From: a virus
DNA length: 64,000 nucleotides
IMG/VR virus record: IMGVR_UViG_3300014819_000003
Location: 1-64,000 of that record
Direction: 5' to 3' (one strand)
The notes under the pieces are model-generated. The model worked only from the letters and a program-made list of their open reading frames with translations, was not told the DNA's origin and did not search any database. The position numbers were made by a program, and so were the translations under genes. Below are positions 1 through 62,868 of this stretch, in pieces (the stretch's first letter is position 1; the number at the start of each line of letters is the position of its first letter).

Positions 1-102
1 TGTGGAGATAACTCCAAAAGAATATGCGTATTCGCTATAACCTTTTTCTTTTGCGATAGCAATTAGGCTATCAAGTATTTTTGTTCTGTCTAAACTATTC
101 AT
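1..102 (-). CDS. small hypothetical early protein, truncated at window edge (MNSLDRTKILDSLIAIAKEKGYSEYAYSFGVIST...)
   Basis: manual translation; AGAAAGG RBS upstream; promoter at 133-173. Confidence 0.7.
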   Translation of the reverse strand, partial: MNSLDRTKILDSLIAIAKEKGYSEYAYSFGVIST

Positions 103-132
103 TAGTTTTCCTTTCTAATTTTTCAGGCTTCT

Positions 133-211
133 AGCCTACCATTTTCTACTGACATTTTCAAATCCGACACGCCCAGATTTCGGGAAAAATTCGGGTGTGA
201 TAATAATCACG
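133..211 (-). promoter_or_regulatory. composite early promoter P1
   Basis: minus strand: CRP-like site 196-211, GGCGTGTC 166-173, TTGAAA-17-TAGGCT, TGTCAG 10 nt before -10. Confidence 0.75.
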
Positions 212-220
212 TCATAAACA

Positions 221-244
221 CCCTGTGGATAACCCTGTGGAAAA
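221..244. promoter_or_regulatory. tandem DnaA-box-like direct repeat
   Basis: CCCTGTGGATAA CCCTGTGGAAAA; TGTGGATAA is the exact reverse complement of TTATCCACA. Confidence 0.55.
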
Positions 245-300
245 CGTGGCGGCAAATGTTGAAACTTCAACCAATTTAGTCAAAGTTTCAACCATTTAAT

Positions 301-447
301 TTAGATCTTTATTTCATTCCATTTCATCTCAGCAATTTCTTTACGCAAATTTTTATTTTCAATTTCAAATCTACGCAAATTCATTAGCATTCCAAAAAAG
401 AAAACGCCGAATGAAATTAGAGCGAATGTCAAAATTATTTCTGTCAT
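301..447 (-). CDS. 48-aa membrane-anchored hypothetical protein (not in ORF track)
   Basis: MTEIILTFALISFGVFFFGMLMNLRRFEIENKNLRKEIAEMKWNEIKI; ATGA overlap with upstream gene. Confidence 0.7.
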   Translation of the reverse strand: MTEIILTFALISFGVFFFGMLMNLRRFEIENKNLRKEIAEMKWNEIKI

Positions 448-635
448 GCGTTTATTAGTCCTAACTCATCAACGCCACACGCTTTCTCAAAACGGGCTTT
501 ATCAAATCTGTCATTATCAGCGAGAAAGAATTGAGCAAATTCCTCTACTAAATCCTCAAAAACCTGTGGGTGTATCTCGCCAGAAAATCCAGCGAGAATG
601 TTAGCAGTTTCAATATAGTCTTTACGAGTCATCAT
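444..635 (-). CDS. small hypothetical phage protein
   Basis: MTRKDY...DNDRFDKARFEKAC motif typical of small phage proteins; GAGGAG RBS. Confidence 0.8.
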   Translation of the reverse strand: MMTRKDYIETANILAGFSGEIHPQVFEDLVEEFAQFFLADNDRFDKARFEKACGVDELGLINA

Positions 636-896
636 TTAGTTATTCTCCTCATCTAGTAGAATGAACGCATGAGTGCCACCTTCATTAACACGCTCTAATT
701 CTGAAAGTAATTCATCACGAGTTAGAAGTGAAGCATTACCTACTAATTCTGTTACTGCTTGAATGTTTAGGTCTGTTACAACCTGCGTAGGCATTTTAGC
801 AAGTGTGCCTGCGAATGGAGAGTCAGCGTTAATTCTTGAAATAAATTTTACGCCATCAACCACGAATGGATAGTCTGTATAGTTAGTTGTTGTCAT
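636..896 (-). CDS. hypothetical protein (start revised to MTTTNY)
   Basis: AGAAAGGT RBS before ATG at 896. Confidence 0.75.
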   Translation of the reverse strand: MTTTNYTDYPFVVDGVKFISRINADSPFAGTLAKMPTQVVTDLNIQAVTELVGNASLLTRDELLSELERVNEGGTHAFILLDEENN

Positions 897-897
897 T

Positions 898-1020
898 TTA
901 GTTTTTACCTTTCTTGGGTGTTTTAGTTGTATTGACAAGTTTAGCGATTTTCTCTAAGTTTGTCAAGCGAGTAGCCTCACGCTCTTTCTTGACTAATTCT
1001 TGGAATTCATGAAGTTTCAT
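898..1020 (-). CDS. 40-aa basic helical hypothetical protein (not in ORF track)
   Basis: MKLHEFQELVKKEREATRLTNLEKIAKLVNTTKTPKKGKN; TAATG coupling to upstream gene. Confidence 0.65.
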   Translation of the reverse strand: MKLHEFQELVKKEREATRLTNLEKIAKLVNTTKTPKKGKN

Positions 1021-1214
1021 TAGTCTGCCACCTTTACTGCGACAGTAGCCCAACGATTACCATTGAAGCGAATTGCGTAGGCTTCATAGCCGTCAAGCCA
1101 AATATCCTCACGCTTTTCTGCGAAATTGATTTCGCCATATTGATATTTTCTCGCAAGTGAGCGAGGGTAGTAAGTGTGACCTATTAGCAGGTCTGTAATT
1201 GAATAACTTTTCAT
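1020..1214 (-). CDS. hypothetical early protein
   Basis: ORF with AGAAAGGT RBS and own promoter. Confidence 0.75.
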   Translation of the reverse strand: MKSYSITDLLIGHTYYPRSLARKYQYGEINFAEKREDIWLDGYEAYAIRFNGNRWATVAVKVAD

Positions 1215-1239
1215 AGTTTTTACCTTTCTTTATAAATCT

Positions 1240-1304
1240 ATTATTTCATTTTTTTTCTCAAAAGTCAAAGTGACACGCCGTCTATTTTTGTGGCGTAGGT
1301 CACA
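1240..1304 (-). promoter_or_regulatory. composite early promoter P2
   Basis: CRP-like site 1289-1304; GGCGTGTC-N3-TTGACT-17-AATAAT. Confidence 0.7.
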
Positions 1305-1494
1305 AGGGGAGAATATCTCTCCCGTAGTATTCAACGGCATCAACGATATTCATTACGCCTTTATATTCACGGCAATTTGAGCAGATACTATCCCAACGAT
1401 CAAAAGTGCGTGAGCAGAATACGCAAATATTATCCTGAATTGAATAACCATTATCAATTAGAAAATCTGCTATTTCAATTATTTTGTTAGTCAT
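1300..1494 (-). CDS. small zinc-ribbon protein
   Basis: CVFC...CSNC; AGAAAGG RBS. Confidence 0.75.
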   Translation of the reverse strand: MTNKIIEIADFLIDNGYSIQDNICVFCSRTFDRWDSICSNCREYKGVMNIVDAVEYYGRDILPL

Positions 1495-1523
1495 AAGTTT
1501 TCCTTTCTTTTTCTTACTCCGTA

Positions 1524-1611
1524 AGTCTAGCAGAAATCTCTGACAAAATCAAATCCAAATCACGCTTAGATTTTGTGAGAAATATCACAAGAAACGTAAG
1601 CACGACACGCC
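1524..1611 (-). promoter_or_regulatory. composite early promoter P3
   Basis: perfect TGTGA-N6-TCACA 1574-1589; TTGATT-17-TAGACT with TGTCAG-N10; GACACGCC 1604-1611. Confidence 0.75.
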
Positions 1612-1682
1612 CGAGTGCGGGGGGCGGCAAATATTTTGCGGCAATTTTGCTAATCAATTAAAATTAGCAAAAATTATTTTTT

Positions 1683-1829
1683 TTATTCTACAACATCTAG
1701 AACATCAAAAACATCAAATTTAACTAAGTCACTTTCGGAAAGTGCTAAGAAAATTTTATTTAAATCAAACACAGCACCTAAATCTGTATCTGATTCAGTA
1801 ACGAAACTAATCAAAACATTTTTTTTCAT
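1683..1829 (-). CDS. 48-aa acidic hypothetical protein (not in ORF track)
   Basis: MKKNVLISFVTESDTDLGAVFDLNKIFLALSESDLVKFDVFDVLDVVE; AGAAAGGA RBS. Confidence 0.7.
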   Translation of the reverse strand: MKKNVLISFVTESDTDLGAVFDLNKIFLALSESDLVKFDVFDVLDVVE

Positions 1830-1845
1830 TTGTTTATCCTTTCTA

Positions 1846-2073
1846 TTATTTTTTTCTCATGTGTTTAGCATACTTGAGAAATAGTCTGCGATAACCACAG
1901 GTTTCGCAATAGTGATTTATTGAGGGTTTCACACTCTCAGATGTTTCTACTCTATAAGTAGGGTGCTTACAAGTAGGGTCATTACCTCTAACATTGTAGT
2001 CATTGTAGTATTTTTCTACTTTATCAAAAGACCAATAACCATTTACAATTTCATTTACTTTAATGTTAGTCAT
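1846..2073 (-). CDS. small Zn-binding hypothetical protein
   Basis: CKH...HYCETCG; AGAAAGGT RBS. Confidence 0.75.
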   Translation of the reverse strand: MTNIKVNEIVNGYWSFDKVEKYYNDYNVRGNDPTCKHPTYRVETSESVKPSINHYCETCGYRRLFLKYAKHMRKK

Positions 2074-2110
2074 TTTATCTAACCTTTCTTTTTATAGTTG
2101 AGATACTAAT

Positions 2111-2156
2111 TTATTTGCTAGGCTCATGTTATTTCTAACCTTATTTGCTAGGCTCA
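2111..2156. repeat. 16-bp direct repeat TTATTTGCTAGGCTCA x2 (30-bp period) inside an inverted repeat
   Basis: copies 2111-2126 and 2141-2156; flanked by GAGATACTAA...TTAGTATCTC. Confidence 0.9.
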
Positions 2157-2184
2157 CTTAGTATCTCTATTTTGTTATGTAGCA

Positions 2185-2271
2185 ATACTAACACCCACCA
2201 CTGACATTTTGAGGGAACAAAGTAGGGCAATTCGGACATTCTAAAAAACTTTTTTTGTGATAAGAGTCACA
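2185..2271 (-). promoter_or_regulatory. early promoter P4 (leftward member of divergent pair)
   Basis: TGTCAGTG-N8-TAGTAT, poor -35; perfect CRP site 2256-2271. Confidence 0.7.
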
Positions 2272-2371
2272 AACTTTCGGGCATTTCTATAAATGTCCAT
2301 AAGTATCGGCGTGTCTACTTGACAAATATTTTGCGGCAAATACCGCAAGTCCAAAATGTCCGATTTGTCCA

Positions 2372-2437
2372 TGTGACCAACACCACAAAAGACACGCATG
2401 ATTTAGACTTGACTTTGTCAGTAAGTTATAGTATTAT
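2372..2437 (+). promoter_or_regulatory. early promoter P5 (rightward member of divergent pair)
   Basis: CRP-like site 2372-2387; TTGACT-17-TATTAT with TGTCAG-N10. Confidence 0.75.
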
Positions 2438-2468
2438 TCTCCTATAACAAAAAGAAAGGTTAGAACAA

Positions 2469-2567
2469 ATGTTTGACTTAGCAGATTACCTAGACGGATA
2501 CGGCGTTGCCATTGCAATGGTGCTAGTGCTTGTGATTATCCCCTTCCTCCTCATTCTTGTGGGCTAA
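2469..2567 (+). CDS. 32-aa single-TM peptide (not in ORF track)
   Basis: MFDLADYLDGYGVAIAMVLVLVIIPFLLILVG; AGAAAGG RBS. Confidence 0.75.
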   Translation: MFDLADYLDGYGVAIAMVLVLVIIPFLLILVG

Positions 2568-2623
2568 ATCACACCAAGCCTACGGCGTGTCGCCTTGACT
2601 TTTGGCAGGGTATAGGATAGAAT
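2558..2623 (+). promoter_or_regulatory. composite early promoter P6
   Basis: CRP-like site 2558-2573; GGCGTGTC-N3-TTGACT-17-TAGAAT. Confidence 0.75.
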
Positions 2624-2671
2624 TCTCCTACAAAATTAAATAAGAAAGTGTCTAAAGAAAGGACAACTAAA

Positions 2672-2779
2672 ATGATAAAGAAAAATTGTATGCTATGTGG
2701 TCAGACCACTCATGTATCTAAACGCAGTATCCCTGCGATATGTCCGAATTGTATAGATTCGCTAAATAGTGTGAGATAA
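2672..2779 (+). CDS. 35-aa zinc-ribbon micro-protein (not in ORF track)
   Basis: MIKKNCMLCGQTTHVSKRSIPAICPNCIDSLNSVR; AGAAAGGA RBS. Confidence 0.7.
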   Translation: MIKKNCMLCGQTTHVSKRSIPAICPNCIDSLNSVR

Positions 2780-2846
2780 GTCACACGGGTATGACCAGAC
2801 ATACCCACAAACCACCCCCCAAAATGTCAGTGGTATCAGATAGACT
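2770..2846 (+). promoter_or_regulatory. early promoter P7
   Basis: perfect CRP site 2770-2785; TGTCAGTG-N8-TAGACT, no recognisable -35. Confidence 0.7.
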
Positions 2847-2880
2847 ACCATTATTAGAAACTAAAGAAAGGTTAGAAAAA

Positions 2881-3072
2881 ATGCTAACACTAAATTACAC
2901 AATAGAAAAAGACGGAATTGAACTTTCCGAAATAAATAAACTCATGCTATCAGAGCGTCAGATAAATGACCTCATGGATACTCTTGTGGCTCATGGCTAC
3001 ACAGTATTAGAAATGTCAGTGGATAGTGCTACGATTATCCCTACAATTCACTATTCAGAAAGGAATAACTAA
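2881..3072 (+). CDS. hypothetical protein (start revised to MLTLNY)
   Basis: AGAAAGG RBS before 2881; upstream part of track ORF overlaps promoter P7. Confidence 0.7.
   Translation: MLTLNYTIEKDGIELSEINKLMLSERQINDLMDTLVAHGYTVLEMSVDSATIIPTIHYSERNN
3014..3035 (+). promoter_or_regulatory. internal promoter P8
   Basis: TGTCAGTG-N8-TACGAT upstream of RBS at ~3057. Confidence 0.6.
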
Positions 3073-3073
3073 G

Positions 3074-3181
3074 ATGATAAACTCAATTCAAAGAATAAAC
3101 TGTGACGAGTGTTATGGTCACGGCGTTATCTTCTACGGAGATGATAACGATTATGCCGTTGAACCTTGTGAGTGTATATGA
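3074..3181 (+). CDS. 35-aa Cys-rich micro-protein (CxxCxGxG motif; not in ORF track)
   Basis: MINSIQRINCDECYGHGVIFYGDDNDYAVEPCECI; AGAAAGGA RBS. Confidence 0.7.
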   Translation: MINSIQRINCDECYGHGVIFYGDDNDYAVEPCECI

Positions 3182-3303
3182 CCTACACTCATGAGCAACA
3201 ATTACGGCTCGCATGGATAACAAAATACGGAAGCCCCGAAGGGTATCACAAAGCAACACAACTAGAGAAAGAAGAAATACTAAATGAAACTAACAATAAC
3301 TAG
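3178..3303 (+). CDS. 41-aa hypothetical protein (not in ORF track)
   Basis: MTYTHEQQLRLAWITKYGSPEGYHKATQLEKEEILNETNNN; ATGA overlap. Confidence 0.55.
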   Translation: MTYTHEQQLRLAWITKYGSPEGYHKATQLEKEEILNETNNN

Positions 3304-3466
3304 CATGGCAGGCAATACTTCTAGCATGGAATTGCCAACTAAAGAAGATGTTTATTATTTTATTGACTTGTATAAATCAGCATTGAAAAAAAATCAGCGA
3401 GTAAAAATTACTTGCGATATTCTTGGAATTGACGGGTATTTACAAGGCACTAAACCAATACGCTAA
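3284..3466 (+). CDS. hypothetical protein
   Basis: ORF track; last gene before terminator. Confidence 0.7.
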   Translation: MKLTITSMAGNTSSMELPTKEDVYYFIDLYKSALKKNQRVKITCDILGIDGYLQGTKPIR

Positions 3467-3473
3467 AGCCCTC

Positions 3474-3512
3474 TAGTGCGATCTCTCCAATAGTGGTCGC
3501 ACTATTTTTTTT
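3474..3512 (+). terminator. intrinsic terminator closing the rightward early operon
   Basis: TAGTGCGATC...GGTCGCACTA followed by T-run. Confidence 0.85.
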
Positions 3513-3580
3513 GTATTTTTTTTCTAAATCATGCATCATACATCTTAGAAAAATATTCAGATTTTTGGTATAATGAAAAT

Positions 3581-3778
3581 ATGACAAACCACAACCTTTG
3601 TATCCACGTATACGAATATGTTAATTCCGAGGTTTGCCCTCATTGTGGGCGGTATACACATGAAGTAGATCGTGAACTACACTATAAACTCTTTAAGCAA
3701 TATTATGATGAAGGAAAACATCTAGCCTACAAATGCCCAATCGAGGGCGGTACCATAAGAGGCTGGTGGTCTATATAA
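3581..3778 (+). CDS. leaderless Zn-binding hypothetical protein
   Basis: TGGTATAAT 6 nt before ATG; CIH, CPHC motifs. Confidence 0.75.
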   Translation: MTNHNLCIHVYEYVNSEVCPHCGRYTHEVDRELHYKLFKQYYDEGKHLAYKCPIEGGTIRGWWSI

Positions 3779-3860
3779 AATACGCTATAGCACTCTTAAT
3801 TCTGCTATTTGGTTTGTTAAACTATTTTGCCTATTTGCAAAAAATCAACGGTATGTAAAA

Positions 3861-4061
3861 TTACCATTTTCCAACAGGACATTTAGCATTCTCTAACCCT
3901 GTTTTTAACTTCATAAAACATCCACACTTGCCACATCGTTGAGTCTTTGGTTTGAAAAATTCACAACTCTTACAAATTTCAAGGCGGTAGTTAGCAAGTT
4001 CTTCACCACTTCTTGGCGAGTTTGGATTTAACAAATCCCATGGCTTAACATCATCTGACAT
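3861..4061 (-). CDS. Cys-rich protein, DUF6171-like (start revised to MSDDV)
   Basis: RLEICKSC...RCGKCGCFM..K......CPVGKW; TATAAT and AAGGAAGG upstream. Confidence 0.75.
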   Translation of the reverse strand: MSDDVKPWDLLNPNSPRSGEELANYRLEICKSCEFFKPKTQRCGKCGCFMKLKTGLENAKCPVGKW

Positions 4062-4214
4062 ATAAAACCTTCCTTTAACTCCATTATATCCTATTGGCCG
4101 TATAGAATGCAAACCAGGTTATTGACGCTATTCGTATCTTTGATTCGTGTTAGTCATTGATGGTTTGTTATTCTTTTTGCGCCCCGCCGAAATACGTGAT
4201 ATAATTTCTTCATT

Positions 4215-4442
4215 ATGTCACCACAAGAATGGGCTGGATTCGTTGCAACGATCATAGGAATCGTCGGCTCGGTGGGACTAGTTTTGAGGTGGATCTTGAA
4301 AAAATATGTGCAAGAAATAATGACAGAACTAAAGCCAAACAGTGGATCTTCAATGAAAGATCAAGTAACACGGCTTGAGGATAAAGTCGATAAACTATAC
4401 GACGCTATTTTGATTCATCTTGAAGATCACGCTAATAAGTAA
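4215..4442 (+). CDS. small membrane protein (holin-like or lysis-associated, DUF2746-like)
   Basis: N-terminal TM helix, PNSGSSMKD motif, coiled coil. Confidence 0.6.
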   Translation: MSPQEWAGFVATIIGIVGSVGLVLRWILKKYVQEIMTELKPNSGSSMKDQVTRLEDKVDKLYDAILIHLEDHANK

Positions 4443-4493
4443 CTATATATTATATATATTATATTCTTTTACTATTTTCTCTCTTAATTAATT

Positions 4494-4522
4494 ATTATAC
4501 ACACACTAATTATTGTTGTCAA
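4494..4522 (-). promoter_or_regulatory. perfect-consensus sigmaA promoter pointing antisense to 4215-4442
   Basis: TTGACA-17-TATAAT on the minus strand. Confidence 0.7.
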
Positions 4523-55143: not shown

Positions 55144-55452
55144 ATGGCTGATCGCAAAGACCGTATGGCTTTGCTCAGTCGGTATAACAAACTGCATTTG
55201 CAAAGGTACGAAAAGAAGTCTACACTCAACCTTAATGTTGAGCAATGGGCTGCTGATGCACTTGTTGAATCATATGGACTTCAGCAATGTTATGATTTAC
55301 TAACATATTATTTTGAGATATCTAAAAATCCATCTTGGAATAGTTTTGCTTATAACGCACAAGATTTGCTTGATGGTAAAATTGCTATAGAACAAGATTT
55401 AAAAGAACGTGAAGAGCGCAGGGCAAAGGCTAGGGAGTGGCTAAATGGTTGA
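55144..55452 (+). CDS. hypothetical protein upstream of helicase
   Basis: ORF track, coupled. Confidence 0.7.
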   Translation: MADRKDRMALLSRYNKLHLQRYEKKSTLNLNVEQWAADALVESYGLQQCYDLLTYYFEISKNPSWNSFAYNAQDLLDGKIAIEQDLKEREERRAKAREWLNG

Positions 55453-56671
55453 TATAGAATCTAAATTAATTTCTGCAGTTCTTAATGATAAACAGATACA
55501 TGTATTACTTCAGGCTAATGTAGAAAATATTATGCGAACCCATACAGATGTATGGCAGTTCATTCGTAGGTATGCTGAGACTAATGGCTCAGTACCTCCA
55601 GTTTCTTTGGTAGTTGAGAAGTTTAGAGATTTTGTTCCAGATAAAGAAGTAGGCGCTACCAAACATCATCTAGAAGAATTGCAAGTTGAGTATTTAAATG
55701 AAAGCGTAAAAGACATTCTTAGATCTGCAGCATCAGAGGTGCAGGCAGGAAATGGAACAGCAGCACTAAATGATTTAATTACAAAAACATCAGAGTTGAA
55801 GAAAAATACTTCAACCATTCGTGATATTGATGCTACAGATATTCAGTCTGCTATCGCATATTTTGAAAATGTCCGTAAGGAACAAGAGTTAGGCAAGATA
55901 GGTATCAGAACTGGTCTGCCAGGATTTGACAATTATCTCCCATCTGGAATCATGCCAGGTCAACTCGGTATCTTTCTTGCCTATCCAGGAATTGGTAAGT
56001 CATGGCTATCTTTGTACTTTGCAGTACAGGCATGGAAGCAAGGTAAGACTCCGTTGGTTATCAGTCTTGAAATGTCTGAGGTAGAAGTTCGTAACCGTGT
56101 CTATGCAATTATGGGTGAAGGCTTATGGTCGCATCGTAAACTTAGCAATGGTGAAGTAGAAATAGATATGCTTAAGAAATGGCATACAGATAGAATTGAA
56201 GGCAAGCCACCATTCCATATTATTTCTAATGATAACGGTGGCGAGATTACTCCATCTGTAATTCGTGGCAAGATAGATCAATATAAACCAGACTTTGTTA
56301 TTGTTGACTACTTGCAACTTATGAGTCCAAACCAAAAGTCTGATAATGAGACGGTACGAATGAAGAACCTTTCACGAGAACTAAAACTTATGTCTATTAG
56401 TGAAGAAGTTCCTATTATCTCTATTTCTTCTGCTACACCTGATGATGTTACAAATCTAAATACCGTGCCAACTTTGGGTCAAACAGCATGGTCACGACAG
56501 ATTGCATATGATGCAGACTGGGTTCTTGCACTTGGTCGTGCAGCAAACAGTGATATTATTGAATGTGCATTTAGGAAAAACCGTAATGGTTTTATGGGAG
56601 ACTTCCTAATTCAGGTTGACTTTGACAAAGGCTATTACAGATATAAAGACTTTGAGGCTGCAAATGTTTAA
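55445..56671 (+). CDS. dnaB: DnaB-like replicative helicase
   Basis: AYPGIGKS Walker A, SLEMS, IVDYLQLM, KNRNG. Confidence 0.93.
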   Translation: MVDIESKLISAVLNDKQIHVLLQANVENIMRTHTDVWQFIRRYAETNGSVPPVSLVVEKFRDFVPDKEVGATKHHLEELQVEYLNESVKDILRSAASEVQAGNGTAALNDLITKTSELKKNTSTIRDIDATDIQSAIAYFENVRKEQELGKIGIRTGLPGFDNYLPSGIMPGQLGIFLAYPGIGKSWLSLYFAVQAWKQGKTPLVISLEMSEVEVRNRVYAIMGEGLWSHRKLSNGEVEIDMLKKWHTDRIEGKPPFHIISNDNGGEITPSVIRGKIDQYKPDFVIVDYLQLMSPNQKSDNETVRMKNLSRELKLMSISEEVPIISISSATPDDVTNLNTVPTLGQTAWSRQIAYDADWVLALGRAANSDIIECAFRKNRNGFMGDFLIQVDFDKGYYRYKDFEAANV

Positions 56672-57587
56672 TGAAACATACACAGAAGAACAAGTAGAGC
56701 GAGTCCTAAATGGGGTAGGTATTGAACCTGCATCAGAGACAGAAAGTAACTTTATGGTTTTCTGTCCGTTTCATAATAATTCTCGTACGCCAGCAGGAAC
56801 TGTATCCAAGGAAAAGGGTTTGTTCTTTTGCTTTGGCTGCCAGACAAGCAAGAATCTTGTAGAGTTTGTTATGGCTATATCAAATAGATCTTATTTTGAA
56901 TCTGTTAGATATATTAAGCAGAAAGATAGCGAGACAGACATTACACAACTTGTAAACAAAAAGTTGTATGTTGCTCCTGAATTTGTGCAGTTTGACGAGG
57001 TATTAATCAAGAGACTAAACAATCAAGCACTAGAAACACCAAGAGCCATGAACTATTTTCATAGTCGTAGAATAACAGAGGCATCTGTTAATAAGTTTAC
57101 TCTTGGATATTCAGATAAGCAAGACTATGTGACAATACCAGTTCAGTCTCCAGATGGCATGACTATTGGTTTTGTAGCAAGATCTATAGAAGGCAAAGAG
57201 TTTAAAAATACACCAGGTCTTCCAAAATCAAAGATACTATTTAATCTTCATAGAGTTAGATCGTCTAAATTTATTTATGTAGTTGAATCATCTTTTGATG
57301 CAATCAGATTAGACCAAGTAGGTTTCCCCGCAGTTGCTACCCTAGGGGCTAATGTTTCATCTGTTCAGATGGATCTATTGGAAAAGTATTTCAGCGATGT
57401 TATACTTGTAGCAGACAATGATGAAGCAGGTTCTACAATGATAGAGCGTATTGTTGGAAAGATAGGCTCAAAAGTATCTGTTTTAAACATTGACAAAAAA
57501 TATAAAGACATAGGCGAAATGAGCGACGAGGAAATCAAAAAACTAGAATATAAGTTTGACAACTCTATAGTCGCTATGCTAAAATAG
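56664..57587 (+). CDS. dnaG: DNA primase (CHC2 zinc finger plus TOPRIM)
   Basis: CPFH...CFGC; VESSFD; DNDEAG; KDIGE. Confidence 0.92.
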   Translation: MFNETYTEEQVERVLNGVGIEPASETESNFMVFCPFHNNSRTPAGTVSKEKGLFFCFGCQTSKNLVEFVMAISNRSYFESVRYIKQKDSETDITQLVNKKLYVAPEFVQFDEVLIKRLNNQALETPRAMNYFHSRRITEASVNKFTLGYSDKQDYVTIPVQSPDGMTIGFVARSIEGKEFKNTPGLPKSKILFNLHRVRSSKFIYVVESSFDAIRLDQVGFPAVATLGANVSSVQMDLLEKYFSDVILVADNDEAGSTMIERIVGKIGSKVSVLNIDKKYKDIGEMSDEEIKKLEYKFDNSIVAMLK

Positions 57588-58266: not shown

Positions 58267-61200
58267 GTGTCTTACGTTGGGCTTCATGTCCACACCCATT
58301 ACTCTTTGATGGATGGTGTGGCAACTCCGCAGGAATATGTAAAACGTGCCGTTGAACTCGGTATGCCTGCAATTGCGATTACAGATCACGGTACTCTATC
58401 AGGGCACCGTGAGATGTATCGTACCTGCAAGGAAGCGGGTATTAAACCTATTCTTGGCGTAGAAGGATATATTGCATACGATAGATTTGATAAGCGTGAT
58501 AAGTCTGAAAGAACTGGTCCACTTGATCTTAACTATTTTCATATTGTCCTTCTTGCCAAGAACCAACAAGGCCTAGAAAACCTAAATAAATTAAATGAAA
58601 TTGGTTGGACTGAAGGTTTCTATAAGAAACCAAGAATTGATTTTGAAGTTCTACAAAAATATAAAGAAGGCATTATTGTTTTATCTGCCTGCATGAGTGG
58701 ACTCATTGCAAAAGCAATTGAGGTAGGAGAATATGCAGAAGCAAAGAAACATATTGAATGGTTTAAAGATAATTTTGGTGATGATTTCTATATTGAAGTT
58801 ATGCCACACAACAAGCAAGAAATTAATGAATCGCTTGTTGAACTTGCCAAGGCATATTCTGTAAAGATTGTTGTAACGCCAGACTGCCATCATTCTACTG
58901 TTGATCAAAAGATTATTCAGGAAATGATGTTGCTTCTTAATACCCACGCAAAATTGCAAAAGGATGTTACATACGAAAAATCTAAGAAGCAAAAAGACAT
59001 GATGGATCGTCTTGATTATTTATATGGGGCAGACCGTCAAATGTCATTCCGTTCTTTTGATATTCACTTATTGTCTCGTGATGAAATGGCAAATGCCATG
59101 GCCGAGCACGGTATAAAAGATGAACAAATGTTTGCATCAACTTTAGAGATAGCAAATAAGGTAGAAGACTATGATATTAAATCTGGTTTAAACCTATTGC
59201 CAGTACAGTATAAGAAGCCACTAGAAGAGTTAAGATCTCTTGCTATGGAAGGCTTGAAGAATCTTGGTTTGGTAGACAAACAAGAATATCTTGATAGGCT
59301 TGAAGAAGAACTTTCCGTGATTGAGGAAAAGAATTTTGCACCATACTTCTTGGTCGTATACAACATGTTAAGTTGGGCTAAGAAGCAAGAGATTATGGTT
59401 GGTCCAGGTCGTGGATCTTCTGCTGGTTCATTACTTTGTTATGCCATTGGAATTACAGATATTGATCCAATTAAACACGGACTTCTGTTCTTCCGTTTTA
59501 TTAATCCTGAGCGTAATGACTTTCCAGATATCGATTCAGACATTCAAGATTCACGCCGTGATGAAGTAAAAGACTATCTTGTTAAGCAGTATCGTCACGT
59601 CGCATCTATTGCAACATTCTTAGAGTTTAAAGATAAAGGCGTAGTACGAGATGTTTCTCGTGCATTAAATATTCCATTGCCTGATGTAAATAAAGTATTG
59701 AAGACTGTAGATACATGGGATGATTTTGTAACATCTAGAAACTCTGAATGGTTCCGTGAAAAATATCCAGAAGTAATTATTTATGGTGAACAACTTCGTG
59801 GTCGCATTCGTGGTACTGGTATTCATGCTGCTGGTGTTGTGACTAGTAAAGAGCCAATATTTAGACATGCTCCTATGGAAACTCGTTCTTCTCCAGGATC
59901 TGATGAGCGAATTCCAGTAGTTGGTGTTGATATGGAAGAAGCCGAAAAGATTGGCTTAATTAAGATTGATGCACTTGGACTTAAGACTCTTAGTGTAATT
60001 AAAGATTGTATTGACATTATCAAAGAACGAGAAGGTACAAAGATAGATCTCCTTAAGATTGATATGGATGACAGCAATGTTTATAATATGTTATCTGATG
60101 GATATACTAAGGGCGTATTCCAGTGTGAAGCAACTCCATATACTAATCTTCTAGTTAAGATGCGTGTTAAAAACCTTGCTGAACTTGCTGCTTCTAACGC
60201 ACTAGTTCGTCCAGGTGCTATGAATACAATTGGTAAAGATTATATTGCTCGTAAACATGGTCGTCAAAACATTGATTATTTGCATCAGATTCTAAAACCT
60301 TTTACAGAAGAAACATATGGGTGTATTTTGTATCAGGAACAAGTTATGCAGGCCTGCGTTCAACTTGGCGGTATGACAATGGCAGAGGCTGATAAGGTTC
60401 GTAAGATCATTGGTAAAAAGAAAGATGCAAGAGAATTTGATGTATTCAAAGATAAGTTTATCAAAGGCGCTTCTGCTTATATTAGTCCAAACAATGCATT
60501 AGATTTATGGCATGACTTTGAAGCACATGCGGGGTACTCATTCAATAAATCACATGCTGTTGCTTACAGTACCGTATCATATTGGACAGCATGGCTTAAA
60601 TATCATTATCCACTAGAGTTTATGTTTGCACTTCTCAAGAATGAGAAAGACAAAGATGCAAGAACAGAATATCTAATTGAAGCAAAGCGTATGGGTATTC
60701 CAATTAGATTACCACATATCAATGAATCAGAAATTGATTTTAAGATTGAAGGCAAGGGTATTAGATTTGGTTTATCTGCAATAAAGTGGATATCAAATAC
60801 AATTGCAGAACGATATATTGCAGCAAGGCCGTTTAAATCTTTTAAAGAGGTAGAAGAATTTACCTTTACAAAAGGTAATGGTGTTAATAGTCGTGCTTTG
60901 CAAGCCATGAACTCTGTTGGTGCTTTAACTTTTCCAGACAATCCAGCAGATCCAGATAAGGTAAGAGAAAATGTTTATGAGTACCTTAACTTGCCAGAGT
61001 TTAATATGCAAATACCACAACACTATTATGCTTACATAAATGATATTGAAGAGTATGAAGAAAAGGGTGCATTCATATTGATGGGTATGGTAAAATCAAT
61101 TAAGAGATCAAAAGGATGGTCACGGGTAGAGTTGTTAGATAAAACTGGAAGTGTGGGAATTTTTGATGAAGAAAACACGGTTATTGAGGCAGGTCGTACT

Positions 61201-61542
61201 TATATTATTCTTGCAAATGATAATAGGATTGTATCTGCAGTTCCAGTTGATGAAATATCTCAATCCAAAGATGCCCTAGTTAAGTTTCTAAATTACAAGA
61301 TGCTACCTTATAAAGAAGGCGAGCACTATGTTGTATCATTCAAGCCCAGAGTTACAAAGGCTGGAAAAAAGATGGCATCTCTTACTGTTGCAGATGCAGG
61401 CAGAGAATTACATGCTATAACAGTATTTCCAACTGCATTTCCAAAAGCATACATGAATGTTCAAGCAGGAAACGTATATAAATTTGAATTTAAAGAAACA
61501 AAAGATGGAACTACAATAATGGAGGATGTAATAAATGTTTGA
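58267..61542 (+). CDS. dnaE: DNA polymerase III alpha subunit
   Basis: LHVHTHYSLMDG PHP domain, GPGRGS, PDIDSD, GIHAAG, YSFNKSHA. Confidence 0.96.
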   Translation: MSYVGLHVHTHYSLMDGVATPQEYVKRAVELGMPAIAITDHGTLSGHREMYRTCKEAGIKPILGVEGYIAYDRFDKRDKSERTGPLDLNYFHIVLLAKNQQGLENLNKLNEIGWTEGFYKKPRIDFEVLQKYKEGIIVLSACMSGLIAKAIEVGEYAEAKKHIEWFKDNFGDDFYIEVMPHNKQEINESLVELAKAYSVKIVVTPDCHHSTVDQKIIQEMMLLLNTHAKLQKDVTYEKSKKQKDMMDRLDYLYGADRQMSFRSFDIHLLSRDEMANAMAEHGIKDEQMFASTLEIANKVEDYDIKSGLNLLPVQYKKPLEELRSLAMEGLKNLGLVDKQEYLDRLEEELSVIEEKNFAPYFLVVYNMLSWAKKQEIMVGPGRGSSAGSLLCYAIGITDIDPIKHGLLFFRFINPERNDFPDIDSDIQDSRRDEVKDYLVKQYRHVASIATFLEFKDKGVVRDVSRALNIPLPDVNKVLKTVDTWDDFVTSRNSEWFREKYPEVIIYGEQLRGRIRGTGIHAAGVVTSKEPIFRHAPMETRSSPGSDERIPVVGVDMEEAEKIGLIKIDALGLKTLSVIKDCIDIIKEREGTKIDLLKIDMDDSNVYNMLSDGYTKGVFQCEATPYTNLLVKMRVKNLAELAASNALVRPGAMNTIGKDYIARKHGRQNIDYLHQILKPFTEETYGCILYQEQVMQACVQLGGMTMAEADKVRKIIGKKKDAREFDVFKDKFIKGASAYISPNNALDLWHDFEAHAGYSFNKSHAVAYSTVSYWTAWLKYHYPLEFMFALLKNEKDKDARTEYLIEAKRMGIPIRLPHINESEIDFKIEGKGIRFGLSAIKWISNTIAERYIAARPFKSFKEVEEFTFTKGNGVNSRALQAMNSVGALTFPDNPADPDKVRENVYEYLNLPEFNMQIPQHYYAYINDIEEYEEKGAFILMGMVKSIKRSKGWSRVELLDKTGSVGIFDEENTVIEAGRTYIILANDNRIVSAVPVDEISQSKDALVKFLNYKMLPYKEGEHYVVSFKPRVTKAGKKMASLTVADAGRELHAITVFPTAFPKAYMNVQAGNVYKFEFKETKDGTTIMEDVINV

Positions 61543-61852
61543 TGAATTAGCAGAAGAAATACATAAAAATGCAGTAGACAAAGGTTTTTGGGATAGAACT
61601 GCAGACCCAATATTTTTAGCAAAACAAATGATGATGATTGTATCTGAGGTATCAGAAGCCATGGAAGCAGTTCGTAAAGAAATGAATCCAGAACAGATAT
61701 CAGATGAGTTTGCAGATATTATTATTCGTACCATTGATCTTTATGCTGGTATGGTTGAGGCGGGGTATGTAACAAAATCACTAGACTATGCAATTAAAGA
61801 AAAGATGGAACGCAACACACATAGACCAAAGAAGCATGGGGTAAGATTCTAG
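61535..61852 (+). CDS. MazG-like nucleotide pyrophosphohydrolase
   Basis: SEVSEAMEA..K...EFADIIIR..D. Confidence 0.85.
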   Translation: MFDELAEEIHKNAVDKGFWDRTADPIFLAKQMMMIVSEVSEAMEAVRKEMNPEQISDEFADIIIRTIDLYAGMVEAGYVTKSLDYAIKEKMERNTHRPKKHGVRF

Positions 61853-62868
61853 TGACAGTTACAGTTGAAGAGGTATTGGCACAACTAAATCCCAAACTAA
61901 GAAAGAATATTCTTGTTGGAGATGAAATCCCAAAGACTGAATATGCAACAACTCCTAGTTTCGGTTTAAACCGTGCACTTAATGGTGGTTTGCCATATGG
62001 TAGACAAGTTCTTATTTGGGGTAGCAAGTCAAGTGCTAAATCATCCTTTTGCCTACAGTTAATTGCTGAAGCACAAAAAGAAGGCAAGATCTGTGCGTGG
62101 ATAGATGCAGAAATGTCATACGATAAAACTTGGGCAGAAAAACTAGGCGTAGATATATCTAAGTTAATTGTTTCTCAGGCTCGTACCATCAATGAGATGG
62201 TTGATGTTGGAGTAAATCTTATTGAGGCTGGCGTAGATATTATTGTTGTTGATTCAATAACATCATTGCTTCCTGCTATTTATTTTGAGAAAGACTCTAC
62301 AGAACTTAAACAGTTAGAAAATACTAAACAGATTGGTGCAGAGTCTCGTGACTTTAGCAATGCGTGGAAGATGCTTAACTATGCTAACAATAAGGTAAAG
62401 CCTACATTGCTTGTATTAATATCACAGTCTAGAAATAACATCAATGCTATGTACACAAGCCAACAGCCTACAGGTGGACAGGCTACAAAGTTTTATTCGT
62501 CTACTGTCATAAAGTTATTTTCGTCTGAATCAGATAATCAGGCAATCAAGGGGAAGATACATGTTGGAGATAAACTCATTGAGGAAAAGATTGGTCGCAA
62601 AGTTCGTTGGGAATTACAATTCTCTAAAACTTCGCCTGCCTTCCAGAGTGGTGAGTATGATTTCTATTTTAGAGGTGACAATCTTGGCGTTGATACTATT
62701 GGCGATCTTGTCGATACCGCTGAACTTGTTGGTCTGGTTAGTAGAACTGGTGCATGGTACCAACTAGAAGATGGTACTAAGGTTCAAGGCAGAGATGGTC
62801 TTGTTAATCGTGTTAAAGAAGATTTAGATTTGCAGAACATGCTTAAGAGCAAGTTGGAAAATGTCTAG
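61852..62868 (+). CDS. recA: RecA-family recombinase
   Basis: L.GGLP.GR, GSKSSAKS, IDAE, VVDSI, GG.A.KFYSS, GAWY. Confidence 0.93.
   Translation: MTVTVEEVLAQLNPKLRKNILVGDEIPKTEYATTPSFGLNRALNGGLPYGRQVLIWGSKSSAKSSFCLQLIAEAQKEGKICAWIDAEMSYDKTWAEKLGVDISKLIVSQARTINEMVDVGVNLIEAGVDIIVVDSITSLLPAIYFEKDSTELKQLENTKQIGAESRDFSNAWKMLNYANNKVKPTLLVLISQSRNNINAMYTSQQPTGGQATKFYSSTVIKLFSSESDNQAIKGKIHVGDKLIEEKIGRKVRWELQFSKTSPAFQSGEYDFYFRGDNLGVDTIGDLVDTAELVGLVSRTGAWYQLEDGTKVQGRDGLVNRVKEDLDLQNMLKSKLENV

Follow-up and report, generated by a model that had tools for sequence, protein, structure and literature searches.

Among the promoters that have been described in bacteria, those closest to the element studied here are the RecA-NDp promoters of actinobacteria, which are served by the activator PafBC, a heterodimer of an HTH-WYL-WCX protein pair. 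Their consensus in vivo is tGTCgg(N10)tA(N3)T, with the 5' part located at -23 to -28 and no consensus at -35; two PafB arginines contact its GTC triplet, which is strictly conserved throughout the actinobacteria (PMC8635444). PafBC joins RNA polymerase with sigma-A only if the polymerase is already on such DNA, and only when PafBC itself holds single-stranded DNA (ssDNA) (PMC11804915). Promoters of this type reach beyond the mycobacteria (PMC8223512; PMC5087735), and a citation in PMC12848934 ties PafBC to mycobacteriophage resistance. In this paper we study six sites of the form TGTCAG-N10-TANNNT, located between positions 133 and 3035 of a 64,000-nucleotide stretch of viral DNA. This stretch, which we call the window, comprises positions 1-64,000 of the 91,275-bp IMG/VR record IMGVR_UViG_3300014819_000003 (G000). 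A reading of the sequence alone had proposed that the six sites are early promoters by which a phage uses the damage response of its host to start transcription. In the literature we searched, we found no paper that describes PafBC-type promoters on phages.

Two phage systems provide further points of comparison. In the middle promoters of T4, a MotA box at -30 combined with a -10 element, together with AsiA, a box likewise stands in place of the -35 and an adaptor reprogrammes the housekeeping sigma factor of the host; both T4 adaptors, however, are encoded by the phage and remodel sigma region 4, whereas here no phage adaptor is recognisable and the box coincides with a host motif. The early host-takeover modules of large virulent phages such as SPO1 and T5 place many strong promoters before tiny genes. 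They resemble the present region in their dense promoters and strong ribosome sites, their many small, fast-evolving genes, and a divergent control region nearby, but the housekeeping sigma factor there reads plain -35/-10 elements, without a box at -26.

The TGTCAG promoter class

The six sites occupy exactly the positions and strands originally reported for them, and the sequence evidence leads us to hold that each is a member of a genuine, strongly selected class of promoters that runs small, probably early genes. In dinucleotide shuffles of the window the motif is expected 0.83 times (standard deviation 0.92), and none of 100 shuffles reaches the observed six. The spacing is specific as well: a 10-nt spacer accounts for six sites, while every other spacing from 4 to 20 nt yields zero or one. 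The motif was said not to precede the structural genes, and indeed the entire record holds no copy beyond the six in 133-3035. An independent search for repeats also recovers the promoters as repeats. A plain scan of the early region for -35/-10 pairs is not above chance (18 versus 17.6).

Each of the six sites faces a small open reading frame (ORF), and in five of the six cases a GAAAGG-type ribosome site lies 25-40 nt downstream. We name each promoter by the first base of its box. On the minus strand, P154 (133-154) consists of TGTCAG at 154-149, a 10-nt spacer with a TGG extended -10, and TAGGCT at 138-133; its predicted start is near 126, and its target ORF begins at 102 and leaves the contig at the left end. 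P1545 (1524-1545) has TGTCAG at 1545-1540, a TGC extended -10 and TAGACT at 1529-1524, with a predicted start near 1517 and a 64-codon Cys-rich ORF (1494-1300) as its target. P2206 (2185-2206), at the head of the leftward arm, is of the AAAATGTCAGTGG subtype, with a TGT extended -10, TAGTAT at 2190-2185 and a predicted start near 2178; it is the exception with regard to the ribosome site, its ORF (2073-1846) being preceded by a 105-nt leader. That leader is unusually long and contains the 15-nt direct repeat TTATTTGCTAGGCTC twice (2111-2125 and 2141-2155); in the relative G002, a word similar to TTATTTGCTAGGCTC lies upstream of the equivalent promoter.

On the plus strand, P2416 (2409-2437) has a -35 hexamer at 2409-2414, a single T, TGTCAG at 2416-2421 and TATTAT at 2432-2437; its start is predicted near 2444, before a 32-codon membrane peptide ORF (2469-2567). 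P2825 (2825-2846), again of the AAAATGTCAGTGG subtype, has TAGACT at 2841-2846 and a predicted start near 2853, and its target is the 63-codon ORF 2881-3072. P3014 (3014-3035), of the AAATGTCAGTGG subtype with a TGC extended -10 and TACGAT at 3030-3035, lies inside that same ORF and would be an internal promoter of the 35-codon zinc-ribbon-like ORF 3074-3181.

A further claim was that TGTCAGTG is present at three of the sites and that these have no good -35. This is correct: at the -35 position P2206 reads CTCAAA, P2825 CCCAAA and P3014 TTAGAA, that is, two to three matches out of six. The remaining three carry a -35-like hexamer at 17 nt, namely TTGAAA (P154), TTGATT (P1545) and TTGACT (P2416). 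A TGn extended -10 is present at four of the six.

The same motif recurs across the relatives of this phage. Three related genomes contain 14, 9 and 7 copies, clustered in blocks of small genes, while the reversed pattern occurs 0-1 times in them, and in the four genomes (the record and these three) each spacer other than 10 nt occurs 0-4 times. A larger sample, consisting of 80 related early regions with a total length of 1.37 Mb, was fetched by means of the conserved early protein GP88. These regions contain 647 forward and 55 reverse copies of TGTCAG-N10-TANNNT, compared with 4 in the reversed control. Other spacers between 6 and 14 nt reach at most 30 forward and 6 reverse copies. A spacer of 15 nt gives 71 forward and 23 reverse copies, an excess which, we would guess, reflects a second TANNNT located 5 nt downstream. 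Viewed from the box, a TANNNT lies exactly 10 nt after 75% of all forward TGTCAG hexamers, and the sole variant of the box above background is TGTCGG (45 versus 6.5), so that the box may be written TGTCRG. Individual relative genomes carry between 7 and 31 copies. Orthologous promoters retain both the box and the -10, while the 10-nt spacer has changed entirely; for example, this is the case for the promoter of the DUF932 gene in G001, G002 and G003, where one copy reads TGTCGG.

A weight matrix constructed from 563 unique sites reads A-W-W-TGTCAG-(T/A)-S-S ... T-G-n-TAnAAT, with an A favoured 7 nt past the -10. Its information is near zero at the -35 position, and 11% of the 563 sites match TTGACA in at least four of six bases. 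The TGn extended -10 is found at 60% of family sites. Of the family sites, 28% read TGTCAGTG, and TTG occurs at the -35 of 12% of these, versus 26% of the others (Fisher p = 3e-4, with related promoters treated as independent).

The register of transcription can be read from the genes themselves. In 32 of 556 unique promoters a start codon lies exactly 7 nt after TANNNT, compared with 0-3 at neighbouring offsets, and 31 of these 32 start codons open ORFs of at least 40 codons. There is thus a strong indication that these genes are leaderless, with the first codon serving as the transcription start; leaderless starts at this distance would identify TANNNT as the -10 and place TGTCAG at -28 to -23. 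In the genes that are not leaderless, a GAAAGG ribosome site precedes the start codon, which is located 31-36 nt downstream of the -10.

It is important to ask whether the box requires an activator at all. The sites might be ordinary extended -10 promoters of sigma-A, in which TGTCAG serves either as a part of the spacer that the polymerase itself contacts or as an operator at which a phage protein shuts down early transcription. A TGn can replace a -35, and it is present at 60% of family sites; in addition, three of the six window sites have a -35, and the stretch between -35 and -10 is a classic location for a repressor. A repressor, however, needs no fixed distance from the -10, and yet 702 sites keep one. 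Moreover, 40% of the sites lack TGn and mostly lack a -35 too, the box, with its 6 bp and its lack of symmetry, is unlike the usual dimeric operators, and we know of no contact between sigma-A and positions -28 to -23. We regard such an explanation as improbable.

Two other patterns were considered and set aside. TTGAGG-N10-TANNNT seemed enriched, and was dropped because its sites fall inside genes. Shuffles of the window hinted that TGTCAG is avoided elsewhere in the genome, an effect that is absent when four genomes are tested with an order-4 Markov model.

The phage family and its probable host

The record has a G+C content of 37% and an estimated completeness of 84%. Near-identical DNA is present in freshwater and lake metagenomes of a dozen studies, and at least 597 other IMG/VR contigs encode a portal protein 78-95% identical to that of the phage, which implies a large and abundant family. 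A near-identity search of the cultured phage collection gave no matches; the portal of Streptomyces phages (Stanwilliamsviridae) is just 47% identical.

The record contains a single divergent control region, near 2200-2420, set within a divergent block of about 15 small ORFs of 30-86 codons (1-3181) that extends into both arms. The leftward arm is short, consists of small genes and continues beyond the contig end. The rightward arm encodes, in order, tail-fibre-like proteins, ribonucleotide reductase, head proteins and a tape measure of 3107 codons, followed by DnaB, DnaG, DnaE and RecA. The phage thus has its own bacterial-type RecA (134 bits; 61852-62868), DnaE-type polymerase (58267-61542), and DnaB helicase and DnaG primase (55445-57587); none of these four genes has a TGTCAG promoter in front of it. 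Past the window, positions 82456-90245 on the minus strand prolong the leftward arm with glycosyltransferases, FkbM-type methyltransferases, a PIG-L-like deacetylase and an endonuclease VII. The relative G002 is complete, being a circular assembly of 101.5 kb with a 33-bp overlap; it has the same genome plan, with an early arm of about 22 kb.

Searches of four genomes, one of them complete, found neither a tyrosine nor a serine recombinase that could act as an integrase, and the phage is therefore probably virulent. For the same reason, we set aside the idea of a temperate phage in which the motif would be an induction switch. As a separate observation, GACATC/GATGTC is nearly missing from positions 4700-82000 of the record: an order-4 Markov model predicts 22.7 copies, and 1 is present. 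With GGATCC depleted too, this looks like avoidance of restriction sites.

The relatives encode GP88 and DUF932 proteins in their early arm, both of which we take to be common in actinophages. The phage itself has a gene for a WhiB protein at 80092-80277 of the record, and its score of 48.9 bits exceeds the cut-off of 23.6. Relatives of this WhiB in 200 records of cultured phages (INPHARED) all belong to phages of Streptomyces, Mycobacterium, Rhodococcus, Gordonia, Propionibacterium or Tsukamurella, and WhiB serves as a marker of actinophages (PMC10202952; PMC10914622). Because of WhiB, of GP88 and DUF932, and of the leaderless genes, the host is very probably a lake actinobacterium; its low G+C content, together with the habitat in lakes, suggests that the phage infects one of the low-GC freshwater lineages. 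A search for homologues of the phage WhiB returned proteins of the phage family only and no link to a host. The scan of genome contigs with an alignment of the phage WhiB gave as its sole match a 4-kb phage-like contig, CAYZIG010000046.1 (L139), whose WhiB is 64% identical. This contig is binned in a 0.7-Mb metagenome-assembled genome labelled Candidatus Saccharibacteria, and since that genome holds no other WhiB, its placement is probably a binning error.

PafBC and other candidate readers of the box

The sequence-only reading held that the sites match the RecA-NDp consensus recognised by PafBC, which it wrote as tTGTCRgtg-N8-TAnnnT. When the motif counts and the weight matrix from the region and the related phages are set against the published PafBC consensus, the GTC core, the N10 register, the position of the box and the lack of a -35 all agree; the GTG tail does not hold as a general feature, being present at 28% of family sites. 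The wording of the consensus was not found verbatim in the literature we searched. The two kinds of promoter share a 22-nt bipartite motif whose GTC box, at -28 to -23, lies exactly 10 nt before a sigma-A TANNNT; both allow R at position 5 of the box, both lack a conserved -35, and both occur in an actinobacterial setting, the evidence for which is indirect in the case of the phage. Unlike the known PafBC promoters, those studied here are carried by a probably virulent phage, precede small genes of unknown role rather than DNA-repair genes, occur 7-30 times per genome, and frequently have a TGn and upstream CRP-type sites, and in some cases a -35.

Palindromes of the CRP/GlxR type precede four of the six window promoters. 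Three are perfect copies of TGTGA-N6-TCACA, located at 1574-1589, 2256-2271 and 2770-2785, with centres 64.5, 85.5 and 75.5 nt before the predicted starts of P1545, P2206 and P2825, respectively; the fourth is near-perfect (TGTGA-N6-TCACg, 196-211) and lies upstream of P154. Among 598 promoter contexts in the family, 236 perfect palindromes are found within 150 nt upstream (about 40%), and the favoured centres, -64.5, -74.5 and -85.5, are one helical turn apart. In this respect the promoters resemble class I CRP/GlxR promoters, which have TGTGA-N6-TCACA upstream at helically phased distances. They differ in that the predicted phage sites are about 3 bp off the textbook positions and are joined with a box at -26. 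The phased sites suggest a host polymerase that works with host factors.

We put the chance that host PafBC reads the TGTCAG promoters at about even. Under this mechanism, which we consider the likeliest, each site would comprise a -10 of the sigma-A type, usually with TGn, and a fixed TGTCAG at -28 to -23. Host RNA polymerase with sigma-A would read the promoters, using host PafBC as an adaptor. At its known promoters PafBC, with ssDNA bound, inserts itself between sigma-A region 4 and the DNA and reads the -26 box, a mode of action known as sigma adaptation. Expression of the early genes would then rise with the ssDNA produced by injection, by nuclease attack or by replication of the phage. 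Sites with an additional -35, three of six in the window, would give a basal start without the adaptor, and the upstream CRP-type sites would add a second host input.

More tentatively, we suggest a fuller account, which we think somewhat likelier to be wrong than right: that a very abundant family of virulent lake actinophages, having no early transcription factor of its own, may fire its early programme by means of the host's ssDNA alarm PafBC together with host CRP, such that nuclease attack or damage would raise early and counter-defence genes. In the original proposal of control by PafBC and the damage response, the parts that stand are the geometry, the actinobacterial signature, the absence of a recognisable phage factor and the confinement of the motif to the block of small genes; that PafBC is the reader, and ssDNA or damage the trigger, are parts which we infer.

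Several observations weigh against a role for PafBC. T1 and G6 never vary in the phage box, but are weakly conserved in Mycobacterium smegmatis, and the bases that follow the box are mostly TCC, ACC or TGG, with the GTG of RecA-NDp at only the 28% already mentioned. The Streptomyces relatives in the Stanwilliamsviridae, whose hosts have PafBC, show no enrichment of the motif. Two pattern scans of IMG/VR gave, among the matches listed, arrays only in contigs with proteins of the phage family, with the single exception of a contig we refer to as G007. The window sites with a usable -35 need not depend wholly on an activator, and early genes that depend on a stress-activated factor would be a risk for a virulent phage. 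Finally, several conserved early proteins have no known function.

This last point raises the possibility that the box is read by a small adaptor protein made by the phage or delivered with the virion, comparable to MotA with AsiA in T4, which would bind TGTCAG near -26 as well as region 4 of host sigma-A. Such an adaptor could first be made from the promoters with a -35, or from the ordinary promoters at 2595 and 1268 described below, and the likeness of the sites to those of PafBC would be convergence or mimicry. Candidates exist: four small early proteins of no known function, p141, p94, p80 and p72, are retained in 66-78 of the 80 loci, GP88 and DUF932 are likewise unexplained, and the window relative of p72 (1214-1020) lies behind an ordinary promoter without a box. 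The near-confinement of the arrays to the family, among the matches listed, and the lack of the motif in the Streptomyces relatives would also be expected of a phage-encoded reader.

A search for such a protein was made in 51 early-arm proteins, 39 from the complete relative and 12 from the window. Pfam matched no transcription-factor family among them, and returned only GP88, DUF932, DUF4241, DUF6171, an NMN transporter and weak zinc-finger matches. Six-frame searches of four genomes found neither a WYL domain nor Sigma70_r2. Taken together, these searches show no helix-turn-helix, WYL, sigma or other transcription-factor family. The structural model of p141, with a predicted local distance difference test (pLDDT) score of 84, consists of a long helix and a small sheet and resembles no solved DNA-binding fold; with no match in Pfam, PDB sequences, the Atlas or by fold, p141 was rejected as a candidate reader. 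In the relatives, moreover, the conserved early proteins are themselves behind TGTCAG promoters, so that either the reader of the box must already be there at time zero or a small initial output must come from the copies with a -35. Such an arrangement favours a host factor as the reader. It would also be an odd coincidence for a phage adaptor to match a host motif in both its core bases and its exact spacing.

The exception found in the pattern scans bears on the same question. G007 (IMGVR_UViG_3300042257_000024) is a 30-kb fragment that has no protein in common with the family, and in its terminase and exonuclease it is similar to Enterococcus and gut phages. Nevertheless, between 25913 and 27750 it has five TGTCAG-N7-TGn-TANNNT promoters before small genes, in an island of 50% GC within a genome of 37% GC. 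A sigma-factor-like gene adjoins this island, and the motif is absent from the cultured relatives of G007. This single case fits either a signal read by the host or gene cassettes that move with their promoters. Because G007 carries such promoters without the proteins of the family, we have counted it in favour of a host-read signal, and hence against a phage adaptor, which we consider unlikely overall. A further contig, G008, is a more distant member of the family and has 16 sites.

The reader could instead be another host activator that works by sigma adaptation, of the WYL or SARP type. Sigma adaptation has been proposed to be widespread in actinobacteria, with AfsR as its second example (PMC11804915), and the strictness of T1 and G6 in the phage box, relative to the mycobacterial PafBC motif, would be natural if the protein were a different one. 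Still, no other known factor has such a box and spacing, and in its GTC core and N10 register the motif agrees with that of PafBC; we allow this alternative an outside chance.

The sites might even form a decoy array that soaks up PafBC and blunts the damage response of the host, as the 7-31 copies per relative genome would multiply with replication. This we find scarcely credible. PafBC does not bind promoter DNA unless polymerase with sigma-A is already there (PMC11804915), a gene lies at a fixed distance in front of every site, and the leaderless genes begin exactly at the predicted start.

If host PafBC is the reader, this would be the first virulent phage known to wire a whole early block to a host DNA-damage activator that acts by sigma adaptation, and PafBC-type control would extend to the streamlined, uncultured actinobacteria that dominate lakes. 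The motif would then provide a simple sequence signature by which to search hundreds of genomes of uncultured phages for early genes and for genes that are likely to be anti-defence. If, on the other hand, a phage protein reads the box, it would be a new sigma adaptor that mimics a host one. The window offers matched promoters with a -35 (P2416) and without (P2206, P2825 and P3014), and PafBC, polymerase and assays from Mycobacterium smegmatis exist.

Other elements of the early region

Two promoters of the ordinary sigma-A type, without the box, also lie in the early region, each with GGCGTGTC in front. The first, on the plus strand at 2595-2623, reads TTGACT-17-TAGAAT and is directed at a 35-codon zinc-ribbon ORF (2672-2779). 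The second, on the minus strand at 1240-1268, reads TTGACT-17-AATAAT with a TG, and its target is the 64-codon ORF 1214-1020, the relative of p72, which is the sole early protein common to all four genomes compared.

Five GACACGCC boxes occur in the first 4.5 kb and none elsewhere in the 91 kb; two of them abut the -35 of the ordinary promoters 1268 and 2595, which have a 23-nt cassette in common. GACACG is found at 166, 1272, 1604 and 2391, and CGTGTC at 2310 and 2586. The ribosome-site cassette of the early genes, AAAGAAAGG(TTAGAA), occurs six times in positions 1-4500 of the window and is absent from the other 87 kb, where other Shine-Dalgarno forms are used. An exact 17-nt repeat, CAAATATTTTGCGGCAA, is located at 1628-1644 and 2323-2339, and its second copy comes after a TTGACA at 2319 for which there is no corresponding -10. 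Finally, a full-consensus promoter, TTGACA-17-TATAAT, is located on the minus strand at 4494-4522, where it is aimed at a 66-codon Cys-rich ORF (4061-3861) that is DUF6171-like in the relatives.

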